Shown one piece after another: positions 17,160 to 61,478 of a DNA stretch of 64,000 nucleotides. The stretch is from NCBI GenBank assembly GCA_964362535.1, contig CAYIEN010000005.1:1320-65319 (forward strand). Direction: 5' to 3'. The translations under genes were made by a program, and so were the position numbers. The notes under the pieces were generated by a model. That model ran no database searches, was not told where the DNA came from, and saw only the letters and a program-made list of their open reading frames with translations. Source of the DNA: an uncultured Methanosarcinales archaeon (lineage in GTDB: Archaea > Nanobdellota > Nanobdellia > Woesearchaeales > ARS49). Every line of letters starts with the position of its first letter. The first letter of the stretch is position 1.

Positions 17160-17162
17160 ACG

Positions 17163-17223
17163 TCTCATTTTTATTTAGTATTCTTTCTTCTAGAAAACAA
17201 AAAGAAATAATAAAAAAGAAGAA
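17163..17223. terminator. T-/A-rich bidirectional terminator region
   Basis: catttttatttagtattctttcttc ... aaaaagaaataataaaaaagaagaa between convergent genes. Confidence 0.3.
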
Positions 17224-18315: not shown

Positions 18316-18324
18316 GTGTATACC

Positions 18325-18753: not shown

Positions 18754-18798
18754 TTATCCTCAGTTCTTTTTTCGTAAATAAAGTGAAATAAAACAAAT

Positions 18799-18987: not shown

Positions 18988-18997
18988 GTTAGATACC

Positions 18998-19195
18998 TCA
19001 ACATCCGCCAACCATTGTTGGGAGATTCTGTAGTCCGGAGGGCACGTTGGAGCCACCGGATGTTCCTGTCGAGCTGACTTTGAAGGTTCCGCCCGCTATT
19101 TTTTGCTTGATGTCGTTGATTTGGAATGCTTGCGCGACGCTGATGACGAGCAATACTGCCAGAACAACTGCGATGATGATGTTTGTTTTTTTCAT
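18998..19195 (-). CDS. small signal-anchored protein ending LPTMVGGC
   Basis: 65 aa, one N-terminal TM. C-terminus is shared with the next gene. Confidence 0.5.
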   Translation of the reverse strand: MKKTNIIIAVVLAVLLVISVAQAFQINDIKQKIAGGTFKVSSTGTSGGSNVPSGLQNLPTMVGGC

Positions 19196-19286
19196 TGTTG
19201 TGTACCTCGCTAAAATGAACTTAGCAGCCCCCTACATATGCCGACGTGCTGTCGGCAAAGTTGTAGGTTGCGCAAATAAAAACCAT

Positions 19287-20114: not shown

Positions 20115-20225
20115 GTGTTTCCCCCTTTGGAATTTGTGTTCGTTGTTCGTATATAAAGATTGTGATGGAGCAGTTTTCTGTTGATTTTGTCCGTTTCTTG
20201 TATGAACTTCTTTTTTTACGCTAAC

Positions 20226-20243
20226 CGTTACAATGTTCGTAAC
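20226..20243. promoter_or_regulatory. putative operator copy 1 (inverted repeat GTTAC-N7-GTAAC)
   Basis: cgttacaatgttcgtaac in the divergent intergenic region. Confidence 0.4.
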
Positions 20244-20270
20244 ATAACGCATATTTAAATGTTGTGAATG

Positions 20271-20287
20271 CGTTACAACGTTCGTAA
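20271..20287. promoter_or_regulatory. putative operator copy 2, abutting the blaI-like TATA box
   Basis: cgttacaacgttcgtaa, 16/17 identical to copy 1. TATTTAAG at 20290-20297 lies 23 nt before the ATG at 20320. Confidence 0.4.
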
Positions 20288-20319
20288 AGTATTTAAGTAA
20301 CGTCAGTATTAGGAAAGAC

Positions 20320-24956: not shown

Positions 24957-25277
24957 TTAGATGTCTTCTAAATTGTGTCCGCAATAGATCTTTCCTTGTT
25001 CAACAAAGAAATCATAACGTTCAGCAGGGGCAATATCAGCAAAATCCAGCTGGAAAGACATCTTACATAAATAGCTTCCATCTTGGAAAGGCATAATTTT
25101 CCAATAATCAAGCGCATTTGACTCGCGAAAAATAACAAACGGCTGCTCAAGTACTTTGCCAACAAGCTGTTGACTTTTAAAGGAAGGTAATTTACTAAGA
25201 GGGATCTCACATCCTGTAATTACTTCTTTCTCAAACGGTGCAAGAAGATCAACAATTGATTTCGGGTCGAGAGCCAT
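24957..25277 (-). CDS. hypothetical protein
   Basis: 106 aa. TAATG overlap with the upstream gene. Confidence 0.4.
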   Translation of the reverse strand: MALDPKSIVDLLAPFEKEVITGCEIPLSKLPSFKSQQLVGKVLEQPFVIFRESNALDYWKIMPFQDGSYLCKMSFQLDFADIAPAERYDFFVEQGKIYCGHNLEDI

Positions 25278-25633
25278 TACATCCCCTCTAACTTTTTTTC
25301 GCGCAAATAAACATTGTAAAGCTTGTTTTCGATGGAGATCGTAATTTTTTCTTGTTCAGCAGAAGAAATTCTTGCTAGACCTTCGCGGAGTGGCATGATA
25401 GACGTAAATTGGTTGCCATAAATAGGTGTGATACCAACGCCGTTAGGTAATGTTGTAACAAGAACGGAAACAGGACCCGTAGGCTTTCCGCCGGGAAGAA
25501 TAATGCCGCCAAACATCCGCACGTTTTCTTCCAATAATTCAATTGAGTTTTCAAGAGCGGAAAGTTCTTGGGGTGTAGAGACACGGAATTCAGGCGCGAG
25601 GAATTGATATTTTTTTTCAGTTGTGGTTGTCAT
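25277..25633 (-). CDS. hypothetical protein
   Basis: 118 aa. GGAGGGG SD upstream. Confidence 0.4.
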   Translation of the reverse strand: MTTTTEKKYQFLAPEFRVSTPQELSALENSIELLEENVRMFGGIILPGGKPTGPVSVLVTTLPNGVGITPIYGNQFTSIMPLREGLARISSAEQEKITISIENKLYNVYLREKKLEGM

Positions 25634-46050: not shown

Positions 46051-46359
46051 ATGGTTTTAAGCATCTACGACTACGTTTACGGCATTGCTCAGCTAGCAGC
46101 TGGCTTTCTCGCCATTATTGCAGGCTTTATAGCAATCACGTTATTCAAGGCAGCGCATGTGAAGAAGCAGCTTAGAGCGTGGAAATATCTTTTGCCTGCA
46201 TTAGTGCTCTTCGTTATCGTTGAAGTGTTGGGCGCGTTGAACGCGTTCGGAGTCAATATCGCGCCGTATTGGACGCATGTTTTAGTCAGCGTTATTTTAG
46301 TCCTCCTCATCGCAGCATTAACGAGCCAGATCCACTTAAACAAAGGGTGGGCTGAATGA
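46051..46359 (+). CDS. small membrane protein
   Basis: 102 aa, 3 TMs. Confidence 0.45.
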   Translation: MVLSIYDYVYGIAQLAAGFLAIIAGFIAITLFKAAHVKKQLRAWKYLLPALVLFVIVEVLGALNAFGVNIAPYWTHVLVSVILVLLIAALTSQIHLNKGWAE

Positions 46360-46649
46360 GCATTACCGAAGCACTAGCCATAGCAGCTCCGTTCTACAAC
46401 TTAGCAATGGTCATCATCGTTATTCTCCTGTTCTCAAAGTTGTTCAACCATCATCCGAAGAACGCATTCCTCAAGCCGTGGTATTTTATGTTCGCTGCGG
46501 TGATGGTGTTTATCTTGGAAGAAGTCATCACGATCTTAAGAGCGGCAGGCATCGTGAATATCACGCTCTACATCAATGGCTTTTTCGAACTCGTCATCAT
46601 CTCGCTGTTTATCTACACGTTGTTGCTTGTGAAAGAGCAAGTAAAGTAA
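46356..46649 (+). CDS. small membrane protein
   Basis: 97 aa, 3 TMs. 4-nt overlap with the previous gene. Confidence 0.45.
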   Translation: MSITEALAIAAPFYNLAMVIIVILLFSKLFNHHPKNAFLKPWYFMFAAVMVFILEEVITILRAAGIVNITLYINGFFELVIISLFIYTLLLVKEQVK

Positions 46650-46680: not shown

Positions 46681-47502
46681 TCAGTGCGTTTCGATAAATT
46701 CTTCGATTGCGAGTAAGGCAGTTCCTTCTGTGTCATCACGAACGATAGTGTGGCTGGGTTTGTCTATCCACAGCAATTGTTTATCCGCGCTGCCTATTCG
46801 GTCGTAAAGTATCTGCGCGCTGGATGGATCGACAGTGGGATCTTGTGTGGACTGCACGAGTAACGCAGGAGCATCAATATCGCCCAAATCAGTCTGCACT
46901 GCGCCAATCATGCGCAACAATTGAACAATAGTTCGGGACGGCATAACCGAATAGTAGTGTCCTTGTTCTTCAACTAATACCGTTCGTTTGGTATACCGCC
47001 AGAAAGGAGCCAAAACGGGTACGTACTCTATGCGAGAATCTTGCAAGTTGACAGGAGCGCCGATTGTCACAACTCCTGAAACAGGATGTTGCTTCGCCAA
47101 TTCAAGCGCGAGCGACCCACCGGTAGATATTCCGACAATAAAGACGCGTGAATAATTTGAAGCAAGGCGGTTGTATCCTTGTTCAACGCTTTCGTACCAG
47201 TCTTGCCAGTTTGTTGCTTCTAAGTCGACGGGTCTTCGTCCGTGGCCTTCCAAAACAGGAGTGTAAACGGTAACATTGTGTTCGCTTAAGTAAACAGAAA
47301 GGCCGAATACTTCCCACGGTGTTGCTGATAATCCATGCACTACTAAAACAGCAGTCTCGGATGACGCTTCAAATAAATATTGTCCATTTCCTTCCGTTGG
47401 CAATGATTCATACATTGGGTCGGAGGAAATTGAGCCTGCGATGACGAGTGCAAGAATGACGGAAAGAATCAGGTACAAGATGTTTCGCGGGTGTTTTTTC
47501 AT
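46681..47502 (-). CDS. membrane-anchored alpha/beta-hydrolase (Est/monoacylglycerol-lipase-type esterase)
   Basis: N-terminal TM. VVHGLSATP, nucleophile elbow GISTGGS. ATGA overlap with the stop of the 3121-aa gene. Confidence 0.75.
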   Translation of the reverse strand: MKKHPRNILYLILSVILALVIAGSISSDPMYESLPTEGNGQYLFEASSETAVLVVHGLSATPWEVFGLSVYLSEHNVTVYTPVLEGHGRRPVDLEATNWQDWYESVEQGYNRLASNYSRVFIVGISTGGSLALELAKQHPVSGVVTIGAPVNLQDSRIEYVPVLAPFWRYTKRTVLVEEQGHYYSVMPSRTIVQLLRMIGAVQTDLGDIDAPALLVQSTQDPTVDPSSAQILYDRIGSADKQLLWIDKPSHTIVRDDTEGTALLAIEEFIETH

Positions 47503-50500
47503 CGTTTTTTCAAGTCTCTTTTGATGCGTGCTAATTCAAGGTTGATCTTGGTGACTTGTGTGCGTGATGCGTCCACTTGTTTGTGTGTTGTGACAGAACG
47601 GTTTTGGAGCAGGTTGGTGACTTTGTTCAGTATGGATGGTCGTTGGGTAGGGACGGGAGTTCGTGTTTGCGTGAGTTGTGCTTTGACGTTGATGCTTCCG
47701 TGGCGGAAGAATTCGATGAAGAACAATGCTGCGAATGAAACGCCAGACGCCAGCAACAGTCCGGTGAGTAAGTGTGAACTTATTTGTGTGGGGTCGAGTG
47801 CGTAAAGTGCGAGTCCGAACAACAATCCTGCTTCGAGTGCATACACTGCATGTGCGTGCAGGAATCTGCGTCGGAGCCAGAGTTCCAGTAATAATGCAAG
47901 AACAAGGCTTCCTGTTGCGGTGAGTATGAGTGCGAGGTGCGAAGTAAACCAGTTATTGTTCGTAAACAAGTCGCGAAGCACAACGAGGACGTTTGGTATT
48001 TCAAAGATGGATACTGCTTCTGCGCAGCTTTCGGTGGTGTCTGGTTTGAGTGTTGTTGTTCCGCAGCCCGCTACATCAAGGCAGTCGCGCGTGTGGCTGC
48101 CGTCAGTGCAAGAGTTCCAGTCGTCGCAAATCCAGCTTTCGACGCAGGTGATTGCGGGCACAACTGGCGGAACATATCCTCCGCCGCCACCGCCTCCACC
48201 GCTTGAAGAGCTGCTTGGGGTCGGGCTCGGGTCGGGAGTTGGGTCTGTAGTAATGTTTTGTACGGTTGTTTGTTCTGAGTCTGAAACATTGGTGCGGTAG
48301 CCGGTTTCATTGACAAAGCTCACGTTTGCGGTGTTGTTGATGACGGTGCCGTTGCTGATATTTAACGTCAAGACGCTGATGTTGACGACGTAAATTCCTC
48401 CGGAACTAATATTTCCGATGAGGAAGCTAGTATTGCTGCCTGCAATTGGACTCGGGCTTGCGCTGATGAATCGCACTTCTGAGGGGTATGTTTCATTTAA
48501 TGTCACGTTGTATGCAATTCCCGTTCCTGTGCTCGTTATGGAGATAGTGTAGTTGAGAAGAACACTGAAATTCACAGGGTCGGTAACGTCCGATTTCACA
48601 ACGCTGATGTTAGTGGTGTTGTATGCGAGCAAATTGATTGCGGTTGTCGTGATGGTGGTGTTTTGCGTGAAGAACGCGCCGGTTGCGTTGAAGAAACTGA
48701 CGTTTGCGGTGTTGTTGAACGTGGTTGCGTTGCTGACGTTCAATACGAGAACGGTAATGTTGACAACATATGTTTGTCCGGGGGTTAAGTTGTTGAGGAT
48801 GAACGTGTCGTTTGTTCCGGCGAAGGGAGATGGTGCAGAGTTGTTGAAACGGATGCTAGGCGAGTACGCGTCGGAAACGGTGACGTTAAAGAGGGTGTTG
48901 TTGCCGTTGTTGGTTAGATTAATCGTGTAATTGAGATACGTGCTGACGGTCACGGGATCGGGTGCGTCAGTCTTAGTAAACGTAAAATTGGTCAGGTTGA
49001 GCTCACCGGGGAGTGTTAAAACAGTGGTGTTCTGTATGGATGAGTATGTTACAAACGCACCGGTTTCGTTTTGGTAGGTGACGTTTGCCGTGTTGTTGAT
49101 GACGGTGTTGTTCGCAAAAGAATTGCTGACGTTAACGGTGATGTTGATGCGGTACAGCGTGCCTGAGGTCAAATTACCAATTAAGAAGCTGCGGTTGTCA
49201 GCGAGGGGAGATGGACTCGCTGTGCTGAACACGACGCCGGAAGGATATGTTTCGTTGACCGTAATATTATACGCGGTGCCGTTCGTGATGTTTAACAAAA
49301 TAGTATAGTTCAACTGAGTGCTGACATTCACCGGATCGATGTTGTCTGTTTTCAAAATGCTGAGGTTGGTGTAGTTGTACACGGGCTCATTCACGATGGT
49401 GGTGTTGATGGTGGTGTTGAGTGTTCTGAACGCGCCGGTGCTGTTGATGTAGCTGAGGTTTGCGAAGTTGTTGAAAACGGTGGCGTTTGCGGCTTCTTGG
49501 ACGAGGACGCTGATGTTCACGACATACACTTGTCCTTGGGTTAAATTGTTGATGATGAATGTATTATTTGTTCCTGTAACTGGTGTGGGTTGTGAGGTGT
49601 TGTATCGTACAAACGCAGAGTAGGTGTCTGAGAGTGTGAGGTTGTTGGCGCTGCCGTTGGTGAGGTTGATTGTGATGGTGTAGTTAAGCAATGAACCGAC
49701 TGCAACGGGGTCAGTCACATCAGTCTTGGTGAGTGTGATGGTCGTCGAGTTAAGCGGAGTATTGTCCAGCACGGTTGTTGTGGTGCTTGCGTTGTTGGTG
49801 AGGTAGGTTCCTGTTTCGTTGAAGTAGCTGACGTTGACGTTGTTCGTGATCAGGGTGTTGTTGCTCATGTTCAGCGTCAAGACGGTGATGTTGACGAGGT
49901 AGGATGTTCCTGCGCTGATGTTGCCGATTGAGAACGTTCCGTTCGTTCCAGCGACAGGGGAGGGTGACGAGCTGATGTATCTCACTTCCGCAGGATAGGT
50001 GTCATTGACGGTGATGTTGTACGCCATTCCTGTTCCGACGCTGGTGATGTTGATAGTGTAGTTGAGCAGTGAGCTCATGTTGACAGGGTCGGGTGTGTCG
50101 GTTTTTCGCACGCTGATGTTTGTGAAGTTGTACGAAAGGACTCCCAAACTGGATTGTTCTTCGCTGGAGAATGTTGTCCAGTGCGAGACGTTGAATTTGA
50201 ACGTACTGCCGTCATAGCTGGTGTTTGTGCAAACAGCAGCGCTGCAGTTGAGATAGGTTCCGTCATCTTCCGCATCAATGAGCGCGACTGCGTTTGTGAA
50301 CGTCAAACCAAATAAGGTCAAATTTGCCGAACTGTTGAATAGCGGGTTCTTCACTGTCAGGTTGTTCGTCGCTATTCTCGTTTCGTTCGTGAAGTTTGTT
50401 CCGGTAACAGTCATTGACCTATTATTAAACTCAATTTGTCCAACGCTAGTAGTTCGGATGGTGATTCCCGAAGAAGTCATAGTGTAGTTCTTGAACGGAC

Positions 50501-53500
50501 TGTCGAGCACGGTCGTGTTCGAGCTGTTCAGCAATTGCAGCGAGGTGAGATTTGTGCTTTGAAGTGTGTTTGCTCGGAGCAACGTGTTGTTGGTGATGTT
50601 GACTCGTATGAATGTACCGTTCACGCCAGTGATGTTGTTGAACGCAATTGTCAAATTTTCAACCATGTTCACCCAGATTCCAGTGTCGGTGACGTTCGTG
50701 ATGTTGTTTCCCGTGATGTTGAGGTTCTTGACGTCGCGCGCGTAGATGCCGCTGCCAGTGCTGCTCGCGAGTCCCGCAAACCTGATGGTATTGTTGACGA
50801 TGGTGATGTTCTGGCTGAGGTTCAATACGACGATGCCGTGGCCTCCAGTGCCGTTGATGATGTTGTGGATGATGGTGATGTTGTGGTTCGGCGAATTGTT
50901 TGTGTAAAGGTTGATGCCCGCTCCTCCGGCCGCAAGATGGTCTGTGATGAGGTTACGGATGAAAGTAGAATTTTCGCTGTGTCTCGCGACGAAAATGCCG
51001 TCGTTTGTGTTGTTGGTGATGGTGTTGTTTTCGATCCAGATACCGAATCCTGGCGTCAGCGCGATGCCGAGATAGTTGCCTTGGATGTAGTTGAAGGAGA
51101 TGTTGTGTCCGGTGTCGTTGCTGATATCAATGCCATCATCACCGTTGTTGAGGACGCGGTTGTATGCGACGATGCTGCTATTGCTTCGGATGAGTTGAAT
51201 GCCGTCGTCAGAGTTGTCGATGGCGGTGTTGTTGATGATGCGGTTGTTGTTTGAGCGGTTGGAGACGGCAATGCCGTTGTTGAATCCTGTTCCTGCGGCA
51301 CGCGCTGCAGTGTTGTTCGTAACATTGTTGAAATTACTGTCAAACAGGATGATGTTGTTGTCTCCGTTACGCGAGGCGTTGTTGAGGTCGACGACACTCA
51401 GGTTGGTTGTATCAAGGACGATGCCGTCGTCGGAGTTGTTGCGCACGAGGTTACCGCGCACGATGTTTGTCAGTGAGAGGTTGAGCACGAGGCCGTCTTC
51501 GCCGTTCGCGAATACGGTGTTGTTGATGACGGAGTTGTTGTCGCTTTGAGTAATGAGTATACCGGTGTTTTGATTGCTGAAGACGGTGTTATTGATGAGT
51601 ATGTTTTCTTTTGAGTTCACGGTAATCGTGATTCCATTAGAATAGACGTCGCCGTGCGCGTTGTCGGCAGTATTGTTGGTGAAGTTGTTGTACCATCCAG
51701 CTGCGAGGAGGATGTTCGTGTCAAAGTTACGGCTTGCGTTGTTGTGGCTAATGATGCTTGTGTTGGTACTTCGGATATCGAAGCCGTCATCGGAATTGTT
51801 CAGCGCGGTGTTGTTGAAGAGGGTTGCATTCTTGACGCGCGAGAATACAACGCCGTCCGTGAAGTTTGTAATCATGCAATTTTGGATGGTGATGTTGTTG
51901 AGTGCGGATGCGTTGATGCCATGCTGGCCTTCGGAACGGTTTCCGCGGAGCCAGTAGCCGTTGCAGTTAAGATTGATGTCGTTTGCAGTGATGTTGAAGC
52001 ACGTGCTGAAATTGCCGAACATGGAAAGGTTTTGGCTGACACGATAGTTGCCGCTGGTGTTAAGAATGCGGCACGTGTCTGTCTGAATGTCTCCGGTAAC
52101 GGTGGTGTTGATGGTGGTATTTTTGGTGTTGAAAATGCCTGTTGTGTTAATCCACGAAATGTTTGCGGTGTTGTTGAGCAGCGTTGCGTTGAAAACGGTG
52201 CTGTTGACGAGTACGCTAATGTTGACAGTGTAAACTTGGCCGGAAGTTAAATTTCCGATGAGGAACGTGTTGTTGCCGATGCCGATGGGGATAGGACTTG
52301 CCAAACTAAACGTTACGTTCGCGTCATAGGTATCGGTCAGCGTCAGGTTATACGCGGTGTCCGTGCCGGTGTTGTTGATAGTGACCGTATAATTCAGTAG
52401 GGTGCCGATTGTAACCGGATCAGACAAATCAATTTTGGTCAGCGTGACATTTGTAACGTTCGGTGTCGGGGCCGGCTCGTCTGTACCGATTGAAAAGTTA
52501 TACAGTTCAGGCGTGTACGTGATGTTTTCCGTACCCATCTGTAGTTGGTACTGGAAGTAACGGTTATCAGCGATGCTCAGCGTTTGCGGTGACACAGTTG
52601 TATTGAACTCAGTCATTGACTCCCCGCTACACGCTGCGTCATCGCAACTTCGTACACCGGTCAAATTCAGCGTGTGAATTCCTCGTTCGTAGAGGCGGAG
52701 AATTTCGTCATCCGAAAGCGTTCGATTCCAGAGTGCTGCTTCATCCATGAATCCTTGGAAGTGTTGCGATGTGAACACGCGGTTGTACGCGATGTCGACA
52801 GGTTGGCTGTTGGTGTCAATTACGCCGGTTTTTGCAGTGGCTGCTTCGCGTTTTCCGTTCACGTATACGACGACAGTGGTGCCGTTGTACGTTCCCGCGA
52901 CATGCATCCATGTATCGACCGGAACGCGTGTCGTGCTTGTCGCGGTCGCTCCTACGCCTCCGCTCGAGATGGAAAAATCGACTTTTCTTGCGCCTGCGGT
53001 ATTGTCGAGATCAAGCCCCCAAAGTGAGTAAGGCGGGTCATTTGACGTGTGCGGTTTAACCCAGATACGTTCGAAGTCAATCAGTCCGGTGGGTCGTATC
53101 CAGATGGACATAGTCATGTGGTCTATCATGCCGAATGATGTTGTGTCATTGATAGACACTCGGTCCGATTCGGATGACGTAAAAAAGATGGAGTGATTGC
53201 CCAATTTTGTCGTTGACGTAAACAGACCGCCGGGAGAAACGGAGGTTATATCCCCATTGTGTCCGCGTCCGCTGAAGTCATATGCCCAGGAGGTGCTTTC
53301 GCCGAATGCGGCATCGTTATTGAAGTGCATAAGCAAAAGCAAATCACTCATGTTAACGTAATGCTGCTGGGCATCCTGAATGCTATCGTTACGGAAATTT
53401 GGCAGTTCGCCTATCGGGCTGCTTTTCCAACTGACGTTCTTCCACGTTACCGCATGGCCGACATCGATAATCTGAGATGTGAAATTACCGGTGTTGTTTC

Positions 53501-56500
53501 CAGCAGTGATGTTGATGATGGGGGCTGTGAAATTGAACAGGGTAGCGAAGAACGTGCCTGCATTAAATCCGTAACGTGTTTGGTTCGTGGCGTTAATCAC
53601 GAATGTTCCTGACGGCGAAACTGTTTCTGGAATGGGAGGGGTTTCCTGTGCTGCGAAGGAAGTCCAGTGACTGACGTTAAAGGTGTAGACATTGCCGGAA
53701 TAGCTTGTTTCTGTGCAGACATCCGCTGGGCAGGCAACATAGGTGTCAAGACTTGAATAGTCGACCATGGGAGTCGGGTCAGTCAGTACAATGCTGTTCA
53801 GCGTGATACTGGCACTGCGATTGAAGGCGGTCAAATTTGAGCTGTTGACGACCGTTCGGTTAAGTGTTATATTGATTTTGTTCTGCGTGATGTTGACGGT
53901 TCCGTTGAGATGTATTTGGTCAGGGAATCTGATGGTGCCGTTGTTTGCTGCGAAAGTGATGTTGGTGAGGTTGACGAATGTGTTTTCGCCGAGCAATATC
54001 CAGATGGATGGTGCGTTGAGGATTGTGTTCGTGAAGTTTGTGTTGTTTGCGTTGTTGAGATTTATCGCATGGCTCGAGAGGGATGTTGTTGTGCTGAAAT
54101 TGTTGTTGGTGAACGTGTTGTTGCTTGATGCCGAACCAAGCCCGATGCCTGTTGTTGCATTGAGGATGCTGTTGTTGCGGAAATTGTTGAATCCGCTGCC
54201 GGTTCCCACCGAAAGTCCTGTGCTCGCATTTACGCGGTTGTTTGTTATGTTGTTGTTTGCCGCGCCGGCGAGTGCAATGCCGATGCTGTTTGCCGTGATA
54301 AAGTTCGCGTCGATGACGTTGCCGGTCGCATTCGTTCCTCCGAGCGCGACATAAACAAAAATGTCAACGCCCGTAAACGTCGCGTTGATGGTGTTGTTGC
54401 GTACGGTATTGTTGCTTGTCTGGTACAAATAAACTCCTGTGCCTGTTCCGATGGGGTTCACGTAATTTGTCGTGACGTTGTTTGCTTTACTCGGACCACT
54501 GATGGCTATGCCATATGCATACGCTGAAATTTCACTTGCCCAAAGACTGTTGTTGATGATTTGGTTATAATGAGAGTCTCCGCTGAGGGTTACTGCGGGG
54601 TACCAAATGTCTGCAATGATTGATCCGCTGTCTGAAACGTTTGCGCGCACGTTATTGTGTGCTAGGTTGTTACGGGAAGAATCAACGAGGTCGATTCCAG
54701 TGGAAGGTCTACCGTCGATAAATATGGTGTTGTTCAGGATGGTGCTGTTTTCAGCAAACGCATCCTGCCAGATGCCTCGCACACTGGTGGATGTATTGAT
54801 AGTGATGAAGGTGAGATTAATTGCAGTATTGGTGACTGCATTGGTCAGGCGGATTCCATTGGGAGTTCCTATTGTTTTGCTTATGATGGTATTGTTCTTG
54901 ATGGTGTTATTCACGCTGTAATCAGCAACAAAAATGCCATAAGACGTGGCGGTGCTGTTCATGATGAGTGTGTTGTTCGAGATAACGCTGTTGTTGACCG
55001 TTGTGAAGTTGATGTTTGCGCTGTCCGTACCCGTAATACTCGCGTCCTGAATGATGCAGTTTTTCACCGTCAAGTTGTTCTTGAACGTGGCCAATACTCC
55101 ATATGCCGCTCCTGAACCGGAAGAGTCGTACGTGATGGTGTATCCCGCGCAATCGAGAGTGATATTACTCGCGCCAAGTGTAAGGCATGTTCCGGTGCCG
55201 GTGATGCCCGCAGTCAAGGTTGTGCTTGTTGTCAGTGTGTCTCCGCACGCTACTGCTGCTTCTTGCGCACGGTAACTTGTCCAGTGACTAATGTTGAATC
55301 GCAACGTGTCGGTTGTGCTGCTCGTTTCGGTGCAGATGTCTGCGGGGCACACGGCATATGAAAGTGTATCTCCGTAGTCGACACCTGGGACTGAATTGGT
55401 GAATGTGGTGCCTGTGTGGTTGAGGACAATGAACGCGCTGGTGTTCATGTTGCTGAGGTTGGTGGTGTTGAGGTATGCCCTGTTGTTCGAGATGTTGAGT
55501 GTGGTTGTGTTAACTTCTTGAGAAATATTTGCTTGGAAGAAAGAGAGCCGTATGCTTCCGTTGCTGTTGGCGAATGTTGTGTTCGTGAAGTTGTTGTTGA
55601 CCAAGGAGTTATTGATAGTAAACCAGGAATTGTTGGAATAGATGGTCATGTTCCAGAACGTGTTGTTCGCGCTGCCGTGCCTGATGCGGAGCACATCAAG
55701 CGTGCCGTAATAGAGTGTGTTGTTAGTGAAATTATTGTTGTGGCTCTGGATGACATCGATATTTTGTCCTAAGGTCTCAGATATGTTGTTGAACGCGATG
55801 AACGAATAATTCGTGCCATCCATCGTGAGGCCGTCGTCTCCGCCAATACCTATGTTGTTGCCAGTGACGTTGATTGACGTCGCGTTCCACAGGACGATTG
55901 CGTCGTCACCGCTGCCAACGATGGTGTTGTTCGCGATGACTGAGTCGTTCAGCCACGCGCTGTTGATGCCGTCGTTCTGGTTGTTGATGAACGTGTTGTT
56001 GATGATGCGGTAGCTTGCGGGTCCGCTGCCGGGAACGATTGATGAGCCTCTGAATATTTGTATGCCGTGCGACGTCAAAGAGCCACGCGCGTTCACAAGT
56101 GTGTTGTTGGTGATGTTGATGTACCAACCAGATATCTCAAAGTTGTTGTCGGTGTTGTTAGCAGCAAAATTGTGACTCACGACGGTCTGGTTGTTGTTGC
56201 TCAAGTCCAATCCATCGTCAGAGTTGTTGAAGAGGGTGTTGTTGAAGATGGTGCCGTTCCTTCCGCGGGTGAAGAAGATGCCGTCGCTGAAGTTGGAGAT
56301 GATGCAGTTTTGAACGGTAATATTAATACGTGAACTAGCGTTGACGCCGTGCTGATCAAGACCGCGATTGCCGGTGATGCTAAATCCGAGGCAGTCAAGA
56401 ATGATGTTGTTGGCGGTGATGTTGAAGCATGCTGATCCGATAGTGCTCACGTTTGCGGAGAGCTGGTAGGTTTCGCCTTGTCGGGAGAGGTTTGTGCATT

Positions 56501-56864
56501 CGGAAAGGACGGTGGTTGCAGCAATGCTGAACCCTTCGGTGCCGAAGCCGGTTGTTTCGAGTGGTGCGGGGGCAGGAGCGGTTTCAGGGTCAGAAGTTTC
56601 TACAGGGGGAGTGTCAACTGGAGTGTCAGGAATTGTTTCTTCAGGGCTTGTTTCGGCAGGGATAGTTTCTGCGAGTGGTTCAGCGGGAATGATTTCAGGC
56701 ACTATTGTTTCTTCAACGGGCGCTGCGGTGAACATTCCTGTTGGTGTTCCGTTTTGTCCGAGGAATAAAGCAGTTGCTAGAACGAACATTACAAAAATTG
56801 CCAAGAGCAACGTCTGCCTGCCCTGTTCGCGGGGCGTGGCGTTGGTTCGTCGCGTCTGTTTCAT
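47499..56864 (-). CDS. giant (3121-aa) surface protein
   Basis: Uninterrupted 9.4-kb ORF. Architecture in order:
- N-terminal signal anchor.
- Three parallel beta-helix (NosD/PbH1-like) blocks.
- LamG-like domain (about nt 52675-53330).
- Six DUF11-type repeats.
- Gly8 hinge, Cys-knot, C-terminal TMs and a basic tail.
Repeated N-N-T/S...D-G-(I/L) rungs, saturated with N-x-S/T sequons. Confidence 0.85.
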   Translation of the reverse strand: MKQTRRTNATPREQGRQTLLLAIFVMFVLATALFLGQNGTPTGMFTAAPVEETIVPEIIPAEPLAETIPAETSPEETIPDTPVDTPPVETSDPETAPAPAPLETTGFGTEGFSIAATTVLSECTNLSRQGETYQLSANVSTIGSACFNITANNIILDCLGFSITGNRGLDQHGVNASSRINITVQNCIISNFSDGIFFTRGRNGTIFNNTLFNNSDDGLDLSNNNQTVVSHNFAANNTDNNFEISGWYINITNNTLVNARGSLTSHGIQIFRGSSIVPGSGPASYRIINNTFINNQNDGINSAWLNDSVIANNTIVGSGDDAIVLWNATSINVTGNNIGIGGDDGLTMDGTNYSFIAFNNISETLGQNIDVIQSHNNNFTNNTLYYGTLDVLRIRHGSANNTFWNMTIYSNNSWFTINNSLVNNNFTNTTFANSNGSIRLSFFQANISQEVNTTTLNISNNRAYLNTTNLSNMNTSAFIVLNHTGTTFTNSVPGVDYGDTLSYAVCPADICTETSSTTDTLRFNISHWTSYRAQEAAVACGDTLTTSTTLTAGITGTGTCLTLGASNITLDCAGYTITYDSSGSGAAYGVLATFKNNLTVKNCIIQDASITGTDSANINFTTVNNSVISNNTLIMNSTATSYGIFVADYSVNNTIKNNTIISKTIGTPNGIRLTNAVTNTAINLTFITINTSTSVRGIWQDAFAENSTILNNTIFIDGRPSTGIDLVDSSRNNLAHNNVRANVSDSGSIIADIWYPAVTLSGDSHYNQIINNSLWASEISAYAYGIAISGPSKANNVTTNYVNPIGTGTGVYLYQTSNNTVRNNTINATFTGVDIFVYVALGGTNATGNVIDANFITANSIGIALAGAANNNITNNRVNASTGLSVGTGSGFNNFRNNSILNATTGIGLGSASSNNTFTNNNFSTTTSLSSHAINLNNANNTNFTNTILNAPSIWILLGENTFVNLTNITFAANNGTIRFPDQIHLNGTVNITQNKINITLNRTVVNSSNLTAFNRSASITLNSIVLTDPTPMVDYSSLDTYVACPADVCTETSYSGNVYTFNVSHWTSFAAQETPPIPETVSPSGTFVINATNQTRYGFNAGTFFATLFNFTAPIINITAGNNTGNFTSQIIDVGHAVTWKNVSWKSSPIGELPNFRNDSIQDAQQHYVNMSDLLLLMHFNNDAAFGESTSWAYDFSGRGHNGDITSVSPGGLFTSTTKLGNHSIFFTSSESDRVSINDTTSFGMIDHMTMSIWIRPTGLIDFERIWVKPHTSNDPPYSLWGLDLDNTAGARKVDFSISSGGVGATATSTTRVPVDTWMHVAGTYNGTTVVVYVNGKREAATAKTGVIDTNSQPVDIAYNRVFTSQHFQGFMDEAALWNRTLSDDEILRLYERGIHTLNLTGVRSCDDAACSGESMTEFNTTVSPQTLSIADNRYFQYQLQMGTENITYTPELYNFSIGTDEPAPTPNVTNVTLTKIDLSDPVTIGTLLNYTVTINNTGTDTAYNLTLTDTYDANVTFSLASPIPIGIGNNTFLIGNLTSGQVYTVNISVLVNSTVFNATLLNNTANISWINTTGIFNTKNTTINTTVTGDIQTDTCRILNTSGNYRVSQNLSMFGNFSTCFNITANDINLNCNGYWLRGNRSEGQHGINASALNNITIQNCMITNFTDGVVFSRVKNATLFNNTALNNSDDGFDIRSTNTSIISHNNASRNFDTNILLAAGWYNNFTNNTADNAHGDVYSNGITITVNSKENILINNTVFSNQNTGILITQSDNNSVINNTVFANGEDGLVLNLSLTNIVRGNLVRNNSDDGIVLDTTNLSVVDLNNASRNGDNNIILFDSNFNNVTNNTAARAAGTGFNNGIAVSNRSNNNRIINNTAIDNSDDGIQLIRSNSSIVAYNRVLNNGDDGIDISNDTGHNISFNYIQGNYLGIALTPGFGIWIENNTITNNTNDGIFVARHSENSTFIRNLITDHLAAGGAGINLYTNNSPNHNITIIHNIINGTGGHGIVVLNLSQNITIVNNTIRFAGLASSTGSGIYARDVKNLNITGNNITNVTDTGIWVNMVENLTIAFNNITGVNGTFIRVNITNNTLLRANTLQSTNLTSLQLLNSSNTTVLDSPFKNYTMTSSGITIRTTSVGQIEFNNRSMTVTGTNFTNETRIATNNLTVKNPLFNSSANLTLFGLTFTNAVALIDAEDDGTYLNCSAAVCTNTSYDGSTFKFNVSHWTTFSSEEQSSLGVLSYNFTNISVRKTDTPDPVNMSSLLNYTINITSVGTGMAYNITVNDTYPAEVRYISSSPSPVAGTNGTFSIGNISAGTSYLVNITVLTLNMSNNTLITNNVNVSYFNETGTYLTNNASTTTTVLDNTPLNSTTITLTKTDVTDPVAVGSLLNYTITINLTNGSANNLTLSDTYSAFVRYNTSQPTPVTGTNNTFIINNLTQGQVYVVNISVLVQEAANATVFNNFANLSYINSTGAFRTLNTTINTTIVNEPVYNYTNLSILKTDNIDPVNVSTQLNYTILLNITNGTAYNITVNETYPSGVVFSTASPSPLADNRSFLIGNLTSGTLYRINITVNVSNSFANNTVINNTANVTYQNETGAFVTYSSIQNTTVLTLPGELNLTNFTFTKTDAPDPVTVSTYLNYTINLTNNGNNTLFNVTVSDAYSPSIRFNNSAPSPFAGTNDTFILNNLTPGQTYVVNITVLVLNVSNATTFNNTANVSFFNATGAFFTQNTTITTTAINLLAYNTTNISVVKSDVTDPVNFSVLLNYTISITSTGTGIAYNVTLNETYPSEVRFISASPSPIAGSNTSFLIGNISSGGIYVVNISVLTLNISNGTVINNTANVSFVNETGYRTNVSDSEQTTVQNITTDPTPDPSPTPSSSSSGGGGGGGGYVPPVVPAITCVESWICDDWNSCTDGSHTRDCLDVAGCGTTTLKPDTTESCAEAVSIFEIPNVLVVLRDLFTNNNWFTSHLALILTATGSLVLALLLELWLRRRFLHAHAVYALEAGLLFGLALYALDPTQISSHLLTGLLLASGVSFAALFFIEFFRHGSINVKAQLTQTRTPVPTQRPSILNKVTNLLQNRSVTTHKQVDASRTQVTKINLELARIKRDLKKR
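48300..50125 (-). repeat. five tandem DUF11-type (~125-aa) coding repeats within the 3121-aa gene
   Basis: Each unit: (K/T)xDxxDPV...LLNYT(I/V)...YN(I/V/L)T(V/L)x(D/E)TY...GN(I/L)(T/S)xGxxYxVNI(T/S)VL. A sixth copy lies at about 52095-52450. Confidence 0.7.
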
Positions 56865-56889: not shown

Positions 56890-59800
56890 TCATTTTTTGA
56901 GTTTGCGACGGAGCGCGTCGAGTTCTTTGTTGAGGTCGTCGAGTTCGTCGCGGAGTTCTGCGTGGTTCGCGTTGAGTTTGCTTTTTTTGCCCGGCACTAT
57001 TTTTTGGGTGAATTTGCGTCGTAATGTTTCGAGCGCGGAGTCTGCTTGTTCTAATTTCTGGTGAGCGTCCTGGTGGGGGGCTTCGTCGTGGTGTCCAGAG
57101 TCAATGGTGGACGGGAATGGTTTGGGTTGGTATTGTGGCGAGGCTCGCGGTACGCGGATGGGAGGAATATCGATGGGTACTGCGGGTCGTTTCACTGCTG
57201 GTTTCGGCATCGGCACGCTGGGCATGCGCGGCATGACGAATTTTGGAATGGTTGGGATAGGCGTGGCAGGTCGTTGTGCGTCAATGAGTGCAGCAATGGC
57301 TGAGGGTTTTTTGCGTTCGAGCAAAATAAGTACGACATAGACCAGTCCTGTTCCGGTGAGTATGAGAACCCACGTCCAAGGTCTGTCTGCGCAGATGCCG
57401 CTCAATAATAACACGAGGGCGAGGGCGAAAAGAACAAACGCTTCGCCGGTGTAGAGCCAACGGATGCGAATGTTTGTTTTGTGGAGCCAGCGTTTGATGA
57501 GGTAGGTTGCCGCGATGGAGAGCGCTGCGATAAGCAAGATAATGGCGAGGAAGTCTTTGGTGACGCAGAGTGCTTCGAAGGTAAAGACGTCTGCGCAGTC
57601 GCCGGGGCAATTCAACGAGTCCTCTCCTTCGCCGCACCAGCCGTTGCCGCATGCGCAGCCGCTAGGATCGTATCGTTGTTCGTCGCGGAGGAGTTTGCCG
57701 ACGACGAGGTACTGGTCGGCTGCGTTGCAATTTTCGATGGGGACGCTGACGTAGGTGGTGTATCCAGAGCGTGCTTGTTCTGTGGGTGTGCTTTCGGATG
57801 CAATGATTCGTTGGGTGACTCGTATGCCGAGGTCGTTGTCGATCAGGTCTGTATGTGTCAAATTTAATTCGTAAAAGTCAGTGCAGGCGTTGTCGAGATG
57901 GTCGTCGCCGACTTTTTGCGCGCTGGTGACCGTGATGAGTCCGTCGTTTTTGAGGATGTTTCCATCTGGGTCTTTGAAGAGGTCGAGGTTGAAGCCGTAG
58001 GGTCTGATTCCTGCGATGACGCGGTAATCAATGCCTGGTACGCGTGGAACGTTTTTGCCGGTGACGGATGCTTGGATAAGGTCGGAGTGGACGTTGAAGA
58101 TTTTTGCGACGGTGCGTTGGTTGATGAGCCAATCAAACATGTTTTCGATGGTTTGCACGGCGGGTGAGCCTTCGGTTGGCGTTCCAATCAAAATAATTTT
58201 TTTGATTTTGTGGATGTCGTCTCCGCGGGTGTATGCGTCCCAGACTGCTTGTTGGGTGATGAGTCCGCCGGCGCTGTGTCCGACGATGACGAACTGGTCG
58301 TATTGGCTGGCGCGGGTGAGCAATGCATCAGCGAGTGCGTTCGAAATTTCAGTGAGTGATTTGCTCGGGGGGTAGGCGAAGGTCCATGCGTCGAAGGGGG
58401 CGTGGTTTGCTTTCATGTCTTCAATCATGGAGTTGAACGTTGAGGCATCGCTGAATGCGCCGTGGACAAAGACGACTGCGGTGCGCGTGTCGGGCGAACT
58501 ATAAACGTTATCGAATGCGGTTCCTTGGCAGGGGTTGCAGGTTGTTCCGAGGACTGCGAAGATGATGTGTCCTTGTTTGATGAGCGCGGTGAGGTCAGTG
58601 GTATGTGCGGTGATGACTCCTGAGTCTTGGAGTGTGCTGTCGAGGACGTGCCAGCTTGTTCCGTCGAAATAATAGACGCCAATAGTACTTTTATCGATGG
58701 AGCTTGTTGTCGGCGCGGGCATCGTGATGGTCGCGGGCAGAGGTCCGTTTGCGGATTGTATTTCGATGACGAGGGGGTTGCCGAGGATGACGAGGCTGGG
58801 GTTTGTGGGAGATGGTATGGCGCTGTTGGGTTCGGAGAGTCTTGCTTCAGCAACTCCGGTTATTTCGAGGGAGTAGGGGCCTTGTCGGAGTATGCTGTTG
58901 CCTGGCGCGAGCGGGGCAAAGCTTGTTTCGAATGTGGCGATTTCTGTGGGGAGGAATACGTTTTCTTTTTGCGTTTCTTGTTTAGTGGTTTCTTCGCCGA
59001 GAGTGGTGTCTCCGCAGGGGATGGCTATGTGGCTTGTTTCTTCAATAGTGATTTCTTGACATTCTCCTGCGGCGCATTTCAGGACTTTGTAGTCGGAGTA
59101 GGAGTCAGATACGCCGAGGGTGATGTCGACGTGTTCTCCGGCGCAGGCGAGTTTGAAGGGGGATGATACTGCTATGTATCCATCTGGTACTGCTGCGGTG
59201 AGGTCGAGGGTGCTGGTGGTGGCGCTGAGGCTTGTCGAGACTCCTCCTGTTCCGACTGCGCACGTGACGGGCGTTCCTGCGAAAAGTTCGCCGTACACAA
59301 TCGGGACGACTGGTGCGGGGAGTTCGATGACGGGGAGTAATTCACAGGCTTTGCTGAGTGCGGGTCTGATGGTGGTGGTGCCGCAGCCGACGGAATCGAA
59401 GCAGGTTCGTTTTTGTGTGCCGAGAAGACAGGGTCCCCATTCGTCGCAAGTCCAGCTTTCGATGCAGGGGACGCACGTTCCGCCTGTGCAGAGTTCTCCT
59501 GTGGCGCAGGGGTCGTATTCGAGTGTGGTGCAAGTGCTTTTTTTGACGCAGGAATAGTGTCCGTATGCGGAGCAAACTCCGGTGCCGAGTGTGCACGCAT
59601 CTGAACATCCTCCGCCACCGCCCCCACCACCGCTTGGAGGTGCGGCTGCTGCGGTGATGCTGGTGTCAACTGAATCAGTTGTGGATGTGAGTGTTCCGCT
59701 GACAAAGTAGGTGGTGTTTGCGCTGCTGCTGATTGTTCCACTCGCGCTTCCAGAAACGCTGGTGGTGATGTTGACGGTGTAGCTTCCGACGGTGAGATTG

Positions 59801-61200
59801 CCGAGCGAGAATGTGTCGTTCAAGCTTCCAGTGGGCACAGGTGAGCCGCTGGAGAACGTGACGCTGGGTGAATACGTGAACGTGACTGTTGCGTTGGTGA
59901 CGGTTCCGCCGGTGACGCTCAAATAAACGGTGAAGCTGAGGGTCGATCCCGCGTCCACAGGGTCAGGCGAGGAGAGAACGGTTATGTTGATTGCAGGGGT
60001 GGCTTGCACAATGGGTCCGCTGTCTTCGACGCTGCCGAGAACAAACGCGCTGTTTGCAAGATTATACGGGTATTGCGCGCCGGTGTCTCCGTATTCGTTG
60101 CCGTTCGAGTCGGTGATGGACAGTCGCGAAATATCATCCCAGAAATTGCCAATCACGTCAGCAGTCTCGTTGAGGTCAAACTCATTGCTCGCGTCATCGG
60201 TGTTTGCGTGCGCTTGCGTTGAGTTGCGAATCCAGTTGCCGTAGACGTGGCTTATTGTCATGCCTGTTAGATTGATGGCGAGTGTGTTGTTGCTGATGGT
60301 GTTGTTGCGGATGGTTTGGTTGTGCGATGACGAAAGCGCTTCAATGGCAGTGGTGTGATTGTCAAATGTGTTGTTGTAAATGACGTTAATTATTGCAGAG
60401 GAAACGGCGGAAATACCGATACCATCCTTGTTTCTGTTGTTTATAGTGAGGTTGTTGAATGAAATAGTGTTGTGGTGTGCGTTGTTCAGCCAAATGCCAT
60501 ATCGGGTGTTGTTGGTGATGTTGTTATACGCGATAGAGTTATTCTGTGAGTTCAGCTGGATGCCTATGCCGCCGCAAGCAGTGGATGGCGAAATGTCGCA
60601 GGTGCGGTAACCGTTTTCAAAATATTGGCTGCTGTTGATGATGTTGTTCGTCATGGCGATGTTCATGTGCTGGCCCCATAACGAGTTGTTGTGGATGGTG
60701 TTGTTCGTGAATCTGCCGTTGCTGACGGTGAGCGTTGCGTAAATTCCTTTGTTGAAGTTTAAAATGTCGCAGTTCTTTACCGTGATGCCGCTCTGAGTAG
60801 TTATCGAAACTCCGTTGCCGGTTCCGTTGAATCCGATGAGTTTGAAGCCGTTGCAGTTGAGGGCAATGTTGCTTGCTCCGAAGGTGACGCAGTCTTCGTC
60901 TACGATAACCGCTTCTACGTCTGCGGTCAGCGTTGTGTCGACCATGATTGTTCCGGGGCACGGGTCTGCCGCGATGCCGAAGTCGCTTGTTTCAAAGTCG
61001 TCGCCTTCCATTCCCGTTATGCTTGTGAGTGTGCCGTTGGGTTCGAATACTTGGACGTCGAATATTTCTTCGGTGTTTGCTTGTGTGATGTCTGCGAGTA
61101 ATGCTCCGCTGGGCGAATGCGTGATGGAGAGTGTTGTTATGGTGAGTGCCAAAATGAAGAACGTGAGTGCTGCGTATCCGGAAAGTAAATTCTTTCTCAT
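56890..61200 (-). CDS. giant (1436-aa) surface protein
   Basis: ATG at 61200 (ATGA overlap with the upstream ORF) preferred over the track's GTG at 61215. Architecture in order:
- Beta-helix block.
- One DUF11 repeat, Gly8 hinge and Cys-rich modules.
- Embedded lipase-like alpha/beta-hydrolase domain (VFVHG...VIVGHSAGGL...IGTPTEGSP).
- C-terminal TMs and a Pro-rich/basic tail. Confidence 0.85.
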   Translation of the reverse strand: MRKNLLSGYAALTFFILALTITTLSITHSPSGALLADITQANTEEIFDVQVFEPNGTLTSITGMEGDDFETSDFGIAADPCPGTIMVDTTLTADVEAVIVDEDCVTFGASNIALNCNGFKLIGFNGTGNGVSITTQSGITVKNCDILNFNKGIYATLTVSNGRFTNNTIHNNSLWGQHMNIAMTNNIINSSQYFENGYRTCDISPSTACGGIGIQLNSQNNSIAYNNITNNTRYGIWLNNAHHNTISFNNLTINNRNKDGIGISAVSSAIINVIYNNTFDNHTTAIEALSSSHNQTIRNNTISNNTLAINLTGMTISHVYGNWIRNSTQAHANTDDASNEFDLNETADVIGNFWDDISRLSITDSNGNEYGDTGAQYPYNLANSAFVLGSVEDSGPIVQATPAINITVLSSPDPVDAGSTLSFTVYLSVTGGTVTNATVTFTYSPSVTFSSGSPVPTGSLNDTFSLGNLTVGSYTVNITTSVSGSASGTISSSANTTYFVSGTLTSTTDSVDTSITAAAAPPSGGGGGGGGCSDACTLGTGVCSAYGHYSCVKKSTCTTLEYDPCATGELCTGGTCVPCIESWTCDEWGPCLLGTQKRTCFDSVGCGTTTIRPALSKACELLPVIELPAPVVPIVYGELFAGTPVTCAVGTGGVSTSLSATTSTLDLTAAVPDGYIAVSSPFKLACAGEHVDITLGVSDSYSDYKVLKCAAGECQEITIEETSHIAIPCGDTTLGEETTKQETQKENVFLPTEIATFETSFAPLAPGNSILRQGPYSLEITGVAEARLSEPNSAIPSPTNPSLVILGNPLVIEIQSANGPLPATITMPAPTTSSIDKSTIGVYYFDGTSWHVLDSTLQDSGVITAHTTDLTALIKQGHIIFAVLGTTCNPCQGTAFDNVYSSPDTRTAVVFVHGAFSDASTFNSMIEDMKANHAPFDAWTFAYPPSKSLTEISNALADALLTRASQYDQFVIVGHSAGGLITQQAVWDAYTRGDDIHKIKKIILIGTPTEGSPAVQTIENMFDWLINQRTVAKIFNVHSDLIQASVTGKNVPRVPGIDYRVIAGIRPYGFNLDLFKDPDGNILKNDGLITVTSAQKVGDDHLDNACTDFYELNLTHTDLIDNDLGIRVTQRIIASESTPTEQARSGYTTYVSVPIENCNAADQYLVVGKLLRDEQRYDPSGCACGNGWCGEGEDSLNCPGDCADVFTFEALCVTKDFLAIILLIAALSIAATYLIKRWLHKTNIRIRWLYTGEAFVLFALALVLLLSGICADRPWTWVLILTGTGLVYVVLILLERKKPSAIAALIDAQRPATPIPTIPKFVMPRMPSVPMPKPAVKRPAVPIDIPPIRVPRASPQYQPKPFPSTIDSGHHDEAPHQDAHQKLEQADSALETLRRKFTQKIVPGKKSKLNANHAELRDELDDLNKELDALRRKLKK

Positions 61201-61478
61201 GAGGGCATCACCCACACACGCTTTGATTGCATGTTACATTTCCAGAATGTTAAGAATTCGCGGACGTTTTTTTCGTGCGCGTCAGAAACCAACAAAACCG
61301 CGCGACCGAGTTGTTCGATGTTCCACGCAACAACAACGCCAGATTTGCCGTCGCGGCCTTTCAATGCATAGTAAAATCGTACTTTGTCCGTCTTGGACAG
61401 GTGCTCTATAGAATAGGTGAAGATAACGCTAGCTACGGCAGAATCAGGTTGTTTGACTGAGACCTCTTTGTTACTCAC
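61197..61478 (-). CDS. small hypothetical protein translationally coupled to the 1436-aa gene
   Basis: 93 aa, GTG start. TTTATATA at 61509-61516. Stop overlaps the next ATG. Confidence 0.5.
   Translation of the reverse strand: MSNKEVSVKQPDSAVASVIFTYSIEHLSKTDKVRFYYALKGRDGKSGVVVAWNIEQLGRAVLLVSDAHEKNVREFLTFWKCNMQSKRVWVMPS

Follow-up and report, generated by a model that had tools for sequence, protein, structure and literature searches.

A predicted lipase-like serine hydrolase within a conserved membrane-proximal cassette of Woesearchaeales surface proteins

Analysis of a 64,000-nucleotide stretch of contig CAYIEN010000005.1 (assembly GCA_964362535.1; hereafter the window) revealed, on the minus strand, a gene for a large surface protein that carries an alpha/beta-hydrolase domain next to its transmembrane anchor. 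The open reading frame (ORF) spans 56890-61215 and translates into 1441 amino acids (aa) counted from the GTG at 61215, from which the residues of this protein are numbered. The hydrolase domain (residues ~898-1140; 57796-58520, minus strand), delimited by Pfam, by sequence and fold matches in the PDB and by an AlphaFold2 (AF2) model, lies within a conserved 576-aa cassette (residues 640-1215; 57571-59298, minus strand) that was defined from an alignment of related loci and the same model, and that comprises two beta-sandwiches, the hydrolase, a beta-hairpin and a cysteine knot. From sequence conservation and modelling, the domain is very likely a working serine hydrolase, and the conserved anchor cassette around it very likely lies close to the membrane. 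The fuller interpretation, in which an extracytoplasmic serine esterase of a lipase-like branch forms the core of a membrane-seated cassette and would act on an acyl ester, was given about even chances. As the foot that stays constant, the cassette probably belongs to the main large surface protein of a tiny, symbiotic and lipid-auxotrophic DPANN archaeon, which is probably a member of the order Woesearchaeales. Fold and chemistry of the enzyme are already known; what is new is a fixed enzyme cassette with knot and transmembrane anchor that forms the base of giant surface proteins, themselves highly variable, and is co-inherited with a pair of small transmembrane proteins. No account of the cassette was found in the literature on giant surface proteins, lipases, esterases and beta-helices of DPANN archaea and Woesearchaeota.

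The hydrolase domain and its relatives

A lipase-like alpha/beta-hydrolase had been proposed at 57950-58520 in an earlier note made from the sequence alone, and this identification was borne out by a complete Ser-Asp-His set and by the matches described below. The peptides quoted in that note and the DNA string around the serine codon were found in place: gagtccgccggcgctgtgtccgac lies at 58261-58284 and its reverse complement encodes V-G-H-S-A-G-G-L, with the AGC codon of Ser981 at 58273-58275 (minus strand). Translation, model and conservation all point to Ser981, in GHSAGG (residues 979-984), as the nucleophile. The alpha/beta-hydrolase order of an HG oxyanion motif (in VVFVHG, residue 914), GHSAGG, NDG and THT is complete in the protein, and GTPTEGS occurs at residue 1011. 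Asp1091 of the NDG motif (codon 57943-57945, minus strand) and His1121 of the THT motif (codon 57853-57855, minus strand) are the candidate catalytic acid and base, assigned from the translation and from conservation. The span proposed earlier takes in the serine and the oxyanion HG but leaves Asp1091 and His1121 outside, the fold occupying ~57796-58520; an extent of residues ~900-1090 was likewise too short, since model and matches give ~898-1140.

The catalytic residues were invariant at two levels of comparison. Among representatives of 50%-identity clusters, which are 31-74% identical to the query, the serine was present in 155 of 155, the aspartate in all 154 aligned, the histidine in 154 of 154 and the oxyanion glycine in 155 of 155. 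Ser981, Asp1091, His1121 and Gly919 were also invariant in an alignment of 55 cassette blocks with 24-55% identity.

The Pfam scan assigned residues 914-1012 to Abhydrolase_6 (PF12697): the whole protein scored 27.4 bits and the isolated cassette 28.6, both of which exceed the gathering cut-off of 26.3. PGAP1 (PF07819) reached 21.0 bits with the whole protein and 23.0 bits with the cassette alone, under its cut-off of 24.3, and Abhydrolase_1, Hydrolase_4 and Thioesterase also matched below cut-off. Lipase_2 (PF01674, the Bacillus LipA type) gave no match with the whole protein at E<0.1 or with the cassette alone at E<0.01, and the NCBIfam scan of the protein added nothing specific. DUF676 (PF05057, cut-off 20.3 bits) did not match the protein, but two relatives scored 25.9 (P0010) and 32.2 bits (P0011). 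Across the 55 family members, matches at E<0.01 were obtained for DUF676 in 45, DUF7379 in 41, Abhydrolase_6 in 40, PGAP1 in 27 and Lipase_2 in 7. The earlier placement in a PGAP1-like or LipA-like class was therefore roughly right for the family, but did not hold for the protein itself, which stays below the PGAP1 cut-off and does not match Lipase_2.

Among PDB sequences, the sole clear relative was the esterase BlEst2 of Bacillus licheniformis (6wpx), with E values of 1.3e-6 from the single sequence and 8.2e-10 from the family profile, and the alignment spanned HG, the nucleophile motif, GTPxxGS and NDG. With residues 885-1165 as query, proteins of 823-2315 aa were matched at 38-74% identity. 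A scan of 1.84 billion cluster representatives yielded 174 at E<1e-30 and 214 at E<1e-10; that just 40 more were gained over this interval indicates a sharply bounded family. Together with the Abhydrolase_6 and BlEst2 matches, the 174 representatives put the assignment well outside what chance would give. The matching representatives were 278-7646 aa long (median 1315), with the domain usually a few hundred residues before the C terminus. Across 62 genome loci, the conserved block was the whole of residues 640-1215 and thus extended beyond the enzyme. No dedicated model or informative source name for the family was found in the libraries and sources checked; the sole label on relatives was the generic JGI 'pimeloyl-ACP methyl ester carboxylesterase', the NCBI members being nameless.

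The AF2 model of the whole 576-aa cassette, built on a 55-sequence alignment, had a pLDDT (predicted local distance difference test) of 90.4 and a pTM (predicted template modelling score) of 0.89, and showed two beta-sandwiches, a canonical alpha/beta-hydrolase, a beta-hairpin domain and a short cysteine knot. It superseded a model of the domain alone from 11 sequences, in which the pLDDT was 63.6, the half with the Asp and His lay below 50 and Foldseek returned generic matches. Strands and helices alternate over model residues 261-500, with Ser342 (model numbering) between a strand at 335-341 and a helix at 343-357, and with the Asp and His in loops after the next two core strands. The two all-beta sandwich domains before the enzyme (residues ~650-892; 58540-59268, minus strand) belong to no Pfam family in the scan and are directly followed, at the start of the hydrolase domain, by a conserved CxxC (C893, C896). 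The beta-hairpin domain with the knot CxCGNGWCGEGEDSLNCPGDC (residues 1151-1210; 57586-57765, minus strand) comes after the enzyme.

A Foldseek search of the PDB returned 411 matches at E<=0.001; of the best 50, which were listed, almost every one was an alpha/beta-hydrolase. The best fold relative was mature BlEst2 (6wpy; E 8.5e-10, TM-score 0.71 normalised to the target, 23% identity), followed by the lipases 9g8u, 7cof, 2w22 and 1ex9, interleaved with thioesterase domains of polyketide synthases (PKS) and non-ribosomal peptide synthetases (NRPS). Identity as a PKS/NRPS thioesterase was rejected, because these were fold-level matches only (TM-score 0.44-0.62, 12-18% identity) and a carrier-protein context was missing. 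As judged from sequence and fold comparison, the nearest relatives of the domain are BlEst2 and the family I lipases, in the DUF676/PGAP1 neighbourhood. The family I lipases, here LipA of Pseudomonas aeruginosa (1EX9), LipA of Acinetobacter baumannii (9G8U) and a Burkholderia cholesterol esterase (7COF), have the same fold (Foldseek E 1.8e-7 to 2.2e-6) at just 15-20% identity and TM-scores of 0.42-0.53; they are secreted free enzymes, some of which require a Lif foldase, unlike the cassette enzyme. The GHSxGG and NDG(L/I)V pattern around the Ser and Asp, as present in the cassette, is one that we take to be shared by these lipases. BlEst2 has HG, G-x-S-x-G-G, GTPxxGS and NDG in the same order as the cassette, and its catalytic domain is likewise accompanied by beta-sandwich domains (PMC10816834). 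It differs in being a secreted bacterial enzyme of 487 aa with its extra domains at the C terminus, whereas the cassette has two beta-sandwiches before the enzyme and the hairpin and cysteine knot after it, and is fused to transmembrane helices in a far larger protein. The propeptide form of BlEst2 (6WPX) aligned over 368 columns at a root-mean-square deviation of 16 A, a poor superposition which indicates that the domains pack differently.

Place of the cassette in the surface protein and among genomes

From the N terminus, the protein consists of a hydrophobic segment, a beta-helix, a DUF11/PKD-like immunoglobulin (Ig) domain, a Gly8 hinge, cysteine-rich units, the cassette, three transmembrane helices and a proline-rich, basic cytoplasmic tail. 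Its probable start is the ATG at 61200, which gives 1436 aa and, as read from the coordinates, overlaps the stop of an upstream 93-aa gene as ATGA. The hydrophobic segment, a signal peptide or signal anchor, was located by hydropathy scan at residues 6-35 (61111-61200, minus strand). The right-handed beta-helix (NosD/Beta_helix; residues 134-379, of which 134-362 form the Pfam match; 60079-60816, minus strand) is distal and rich in glycosylation sequons, with 4.8 N-x-S/T per 100 aa, as seen in the Pfam and NCBIfam scans and the sequon count. The Ig domain (residues ~405-525; 59641-60003, minus strand), also sequon-rich, was assigned from a weak PKD match and its alignment with the DUF11 repeats of a 3121-aa paralog encoded downstream (47499-56864, minus strand). 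The hinge and the cysteine-rich units (CxESWxCDxW...GCGTT; residues 529-640; 59296-59631, minus strand) are common to both proteins in translation and alignment. The three transmembrane helices (residues ~1217-1300; 57316-57567, minus strand) were predicted from hydropathy and charge distribution, and the tail (56893-57315, minus strand) reads in translation as a proline-rich stretch followed by a basic amphipathic helix ending in LDALRRKLKK. In the topology predicted from the charge pattern around the helices, the long N-terminal part is extracellular and the tail cytoplasmic.

The 3121-aa paralog was aligned with the cassette protein over the same cysteine unit, transmembrane anchor and tail, and lacks the hydrolase cassette: its cysteine unit runs straight into the transmembrane helices. 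The cassette is hence in effect an insertion between cysteine unit and anchor, and the position claimed for it earlier, between cysteine-rich units and membrane anchor, was confirmed. The proposed closeness of the enzyme to the cell's own membrane also agrees with the family as a whole, since a transmembrane helix (one to three) begins a median of 6 residues after the knot in 112 of the 114 family proteins with a complete CxCGNGxCGxGE...CPxDC knot.

The distribution of sequons divides the protein into two zones. Its distal part has 4.7-4.8 per 100 aa, while the ~690 aa from the hinge to the transmembrane helices contain one; in 96 relatives, the outer part had a median of 5.1 per 100 aa where composition alone would predict 2.1, and the cassette a median of 0.55 where it would predict 0.7. 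This suggests that the enzyme is a bare membrane-side foot and the beta-helix the exposed tip. The earlier picture of a beta-helix stalk carrying the enzyme was thus turned around, the beta-helix (residues 134-379) being the N-terminal, distal part and the enzyme the base. 'Giant', as the protein had been called, overstates 1441 aa, which is large rather than giant. Among relatives, the cassette is the base of proteins of 456-8713 aa (open frames), whose outer parts are variable and sequon-rich. The architecture is not the unusual one-off it had seemed, but a fixed cassette that recurs in this archaeal order; that the variable large surface proteins of these archaea have an invariant enzymatic base in common changes the way in which such proteins ought to be annotated. 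On one Nanoarchaeia contig (L003), two giant cassette-bearing genes stand in tandem (2-11494, >3831 aa; 11437-20304, 2956 aa), followed by a monoacylglycerol-lipase-like gene.

The closest parallel in concept is offered by the SPEARE proteins of Nanohaloarchaeota, very large and mostly extracytoplasmic proteins with adhesion and embedded enzyme domains, a transmembrane segment near the C terminus and a cytoplasmic tail (PMC6642349). The cassette protein resembles them as a large DPANN surface protein with an embedded enzyme, a C-terminal transmembrane segment and a cytoplasmic tail. SPEARE proteins contain serine-protease, toxin-like and cytoplasmic restriction-enzyme domains, none of which was found in the cassette protein; the Pfam and NCBIfam scans showed neither protease nor restriction-enzyme families in it. 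Moreover, the conserved part of SPEARE proteins is intracellular, whereas here it is the predicted extracellular, lipase-like cassette.

The related loci (n=62) are almost all labelled Woesearchaeota, Nanoarchaeota or Nanoarchaeia. Many other related loci bear an automatic 'Methanosarcinales' label with which the genome sizes, where known, are out of keeping: related contigs or chromosomes measure 0.68-0.97 Mb, and matching genomes of the phylum sample 0.7-1.7 Mb. The genome of the window is 0.909 Mb in size and 98.6% complete, and contains one copy of the cassette. The cassette occurs in 55 of 401 sampled genomes of the phylum, among them 26 of the 29 of the window's own family; elsewhere in the order it is patchy across many families, usually in one copy. 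A degenerate cassette was observed at L056:7421-11203, on a 1.04-Mb contig labelled Candidatus Gracilibacteria, where GHSxGG is replaced by GHYTGG, the segment with the Asp is lacking and the His has become Gln. Long ORFs at that locus almost never end in TGA (1/20), which fits a recoded bacterium of the candidate phyla radiation, and the copy appears to have been transferred between domains and to have lost catalysis afterwards.

Candidate substrates and competing roles

The gene content of the genome bears on the possible substrate. No match to PcrB/GGGPS, UbiA/DGGGPS, CarS or AMP-binding acyl-activating enzymes was found in the 98.6% complete genome; the control genomes do match. The missing membrane-lipid synthesis genes indicate that the cell relies on lipids from its surroundings, a dependence also reported for other DPANN archaea (PMC11035636). 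Two PlsC-type acyltransferases are encoded in the genome (G000:C6:20297-20740 and 25172-25549), and the window carries a bacterial-type prolipoprotein diacylglyceryl transferase, Lgt (247 bits; 13092-13808, minus strand, within the ORF 13062-13916). Lgt was found in 335 of 401 sampled phylum genomes and in none of 4 archaeal control genomes; it was rejected as a co-occurring marker, as a gene carried by so many of the sampled genomes does not discriminate.

The last gene of the operon (46681-47502, minus strand) encodes a second putative esterase, a 273-aa, N-terminally anchored hydrolase of the Est30 carboxylesterase/monoacylglycerol-lipase type. It matches Est30 and bacterial monoacylglycerol lipases over nearly its full length, with E values from 4e-32 to 1e-27 (1TQH, 3.9e-32; 5XKS, 1.6e-31; 3RLI), and has a Hydrolase_4 match; from those enzymes it differs by the added N-terminal transmembrane anchor and by its place beside the cassette gene in a subset of genomes. 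Of 47 loci in which the downstream sequence is long enough, 8 have this gene directly after the cassette gene, and its family occurs in 15 of 55 genomes with the cassette vs. 25 of 346 others (odds ratio 4.8).

A lipid acyl ester as substrate is suggested by the nearest relatives of the domain, the monoacylglycerol-lipase-like partner and the lipid auxotrophy, and we consider it slightly short of an even chance. In the mechanism that we propose, the cassette would be a rigid unit of 576 aa seated immediately against the cell's own membrane on its outer side, with the variable, sequon-rich beta-helix and Ig part pointing outward and presumably binding a partner cell or polymer. The substrate would be an acyl ester at the membrane surface, possibly a phospholipid, an acylglycerol or the acyl chain of a lipoprotein, which a host in contact with the cell or scavenged material would supply, and the 273-aa esterase may complete the deacylation. 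Lgt and the PlsC-type enzymes, which handle acyl esters, and the lipid auxotrophy fit a lipolytic role of the two surface esterases without proving it. The contact-dependent lipid or ester hydrolysis put forward in the earlier note is a reasonable hypothesis. DPANN archaea that lack lipid-synthesis genes must draw their lipids from other cells (PMC11035636), and the cassette, which recurs in hundreds of relatives, is a testable candidate for how such cells obtain or rework lipids.

Several points weigh against this lipid-directed reading. The protein lies under the cut-off of every lipase-specific Pfam family, and in the fold comparison PKS thioesterase domains come close to the lipases in score; serine alpha/beta-hydrolases with this set of motifs include thioesterases, carbohydrate esterases and peptidases. 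The ether lipids of an archaeal host offer no acyl ester to cleave, and the enzyme sits at the cell's own membrane, away from the host-touching tip. Freed fatty acids would have no obvious route into lipids, as no acyl-activating enzyme is present in the genome. The monoacylglycerol-lipase-like partner is absent from 40 of the 55 cassette-bearing genomes, and the co-occurrence statistics, both for this esterase and for the small protein B treated below, ignore shared ancestry.

An improbable but leading alternative is a carbohydrate or cell-wall esterase. Acting jointly with the polysaccharide-binding beta-helix and the lectin-like domains, it would strip ester groups, acetyl or other, from the wall polymer of a host, from an exopolysaccharide or from surface glycans of the cell itself. 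Such a role would suit the NosD/pectate-lyase-type beta-helices of the cassette protein and its neighbour, the ConA-like lectin/glucanase domain that the neighbour also has, the dense glycosylation sequons of the outer parts, and the feruloyl esterase and cutinase-type folds among the weaker matches. The best relatives in sequence and fold are, however, lipases and esterases (BlEst2, family I, DUF676/PGAP1) rather than carbohydrate-esterase families, and the recurrent partner is a monoacylglycerol-lipase-like enzyme. That the outer domains vary freely while the enzyme stays constant also argues against a substrate set by those domains.

Marginally less probable still is a self-directed processing enzyme with the surface protein as its target, or else lipid-anchored proteins of the same cell, whether by ectodomain shedding or maturation, by covalent attachment to an envelope component, or by PGAP1-like deacylation of Lgt-made lipoproteins at the membrane face. 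The fixed membrane-proximal position immediately before the transmembrane anchor and the single copy in each genome, always linked with the main surface protein, would favour it; yet the 3121-aa paralog has the same anchor without the enzyme, and no cleavage-site motif or relation to a lipobox was found. PGAP1 is a transmembrane-anchored deacylase of lipid-anchored proteins, in which, as in the cassette protein, the enzyme is tied to transmembrane helices at the membrane face, and it gave weak matches here, although at 21-23 bits these stay below the cut-off of 24.3. Lgt, which would supply such lipoproteins, is present in this genome and in most of those sampled, but it is so widespread among the sampled genomes that its presence does not follow that of the cassette. 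Maturation has parallels in BlEst2, for which propeptide and mature forms are named in the PDB entry titles, and in a SPEARE protein of Nanohaloarchaeota, whose outer part was found in gel fractions apart from its transmembrane and cytoplasmic part (PMC6642349).

A catalytically silent scaffold, which would be retained only to space out the foot of the surface protein, is very improbable: the L056 relative indicates that the cassette can persist without catalysis, but the invariance of Ser, Asp, His and oxyanion Gly across 154-155 representatives and 55 loci is explained only by selection on catalysis. If the enzyme acts on glycans or on the protein itself, instead of on lipids, this would still be the first function assigned to the cassette family.

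Small transmembrane partners and other neighbouring genes

When all ORFs around the cassette gene were clustered, two paralogous proteins of ~100 aa with three transmembrane helices each emerged as a pair, encoded 0-2.2 kb downstream of the cassette gene in 11 loci. In the window, they are protein A (102 aa; 46051-46359, plus strand) and protein B (97 aa; 46356-46649, plus strand), which are ATGA-coupled and 33% identical to each other. The alignment of relatives showed two invariant, membrane-embedded Glu residues in protein B (in helices 2 and 3) and a conserved LLLQKE at its end, which reads LLLVKE in the window's copy. Pfam and PDB searches returned nothing significant for the pair. Protein B was found in 57 of the 401 genomes, in 50 of 55 with the cassette vs. 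7 of 346 without (odds ratio 484, Fisher p 4e-50), and outside the window's own family in 24 of 29 cassette genomes vs. 4 of 343 others. Only 12 of the 50 genomes have cassette and protein B on one contig within 30 kb of each other; in G181 they share a contig at a distance of 293 kb, and in the other 37, nearly closed assemblies among them, they are on different contigs. Their patchy joint distribution argues for a functional link.

The small pair may be the membrane partner of the cassette in product uptake or assembly. Taken further, cassette, small pair and, where present, the anchored esterase might form one dedicated lipid-harvesting machine of Woesearchaeales, a proposal that we regard as unlikely. 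The outer adhesin would dock to a partner cell, the membrane-side lipase would release lysolipids or acyl chains from the ester lipids captured there, the pair, by way of the two invariant Glu residues embedded in the membrane, would move the products across the symbiont membrane, and the PlsC-type acyltransferases would rebuild them. If true, this would be the first defined route to membrane material for a lipid-auxotrophic DPANN archaeon, and would imply that bacterial-type acyl lipids are in use. The analysis provides concrete targets, namely one expressible enzyme domain, one mutable nucleophile and two partner genes.

Other genes recur around the cassette gene. CarS (CDP-archaeol synthase, 122 bits) was seen 0.7-3.9 kb downstream on the same strand in seven loci (L004, L005, L008, L016, L018, L022 and L061). 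It was rejected as a partner of the cassette, since in six of the seven a diphthamide-synthesis gene lies further downstream, which probably reflects synteny, and the window's genome is without CarS. The 93-aa protein upstream of the cassette gene (61197-61478, minus strand), whose stop overlaps the start of that gene, belongs to no Pfam family and is kept in the same place in four related loci (L001, L002, L016 and L005; 47-72% identity). A basic amphipathic helix with the pattern L..EL..L+.+L+K closes the tails of both large surface proteins of the window (56893-57315 and 47499-47700, minus strand) and those of many relatives, and Lys and Arg make up a median of 30% of their last 30 residues. 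In six loci (L030, L032, L045, L058, L060 and L027), the small transmembrane pair is followed, 0.3-1.6 kb downstream of the cassette gene, by a further protein of ~100 aa, which has a C-terminal SHOCT motif and an N-terminal hydrophobic segment of the KAISPLSSTIILL type that we take to be archaeal pilin-like.

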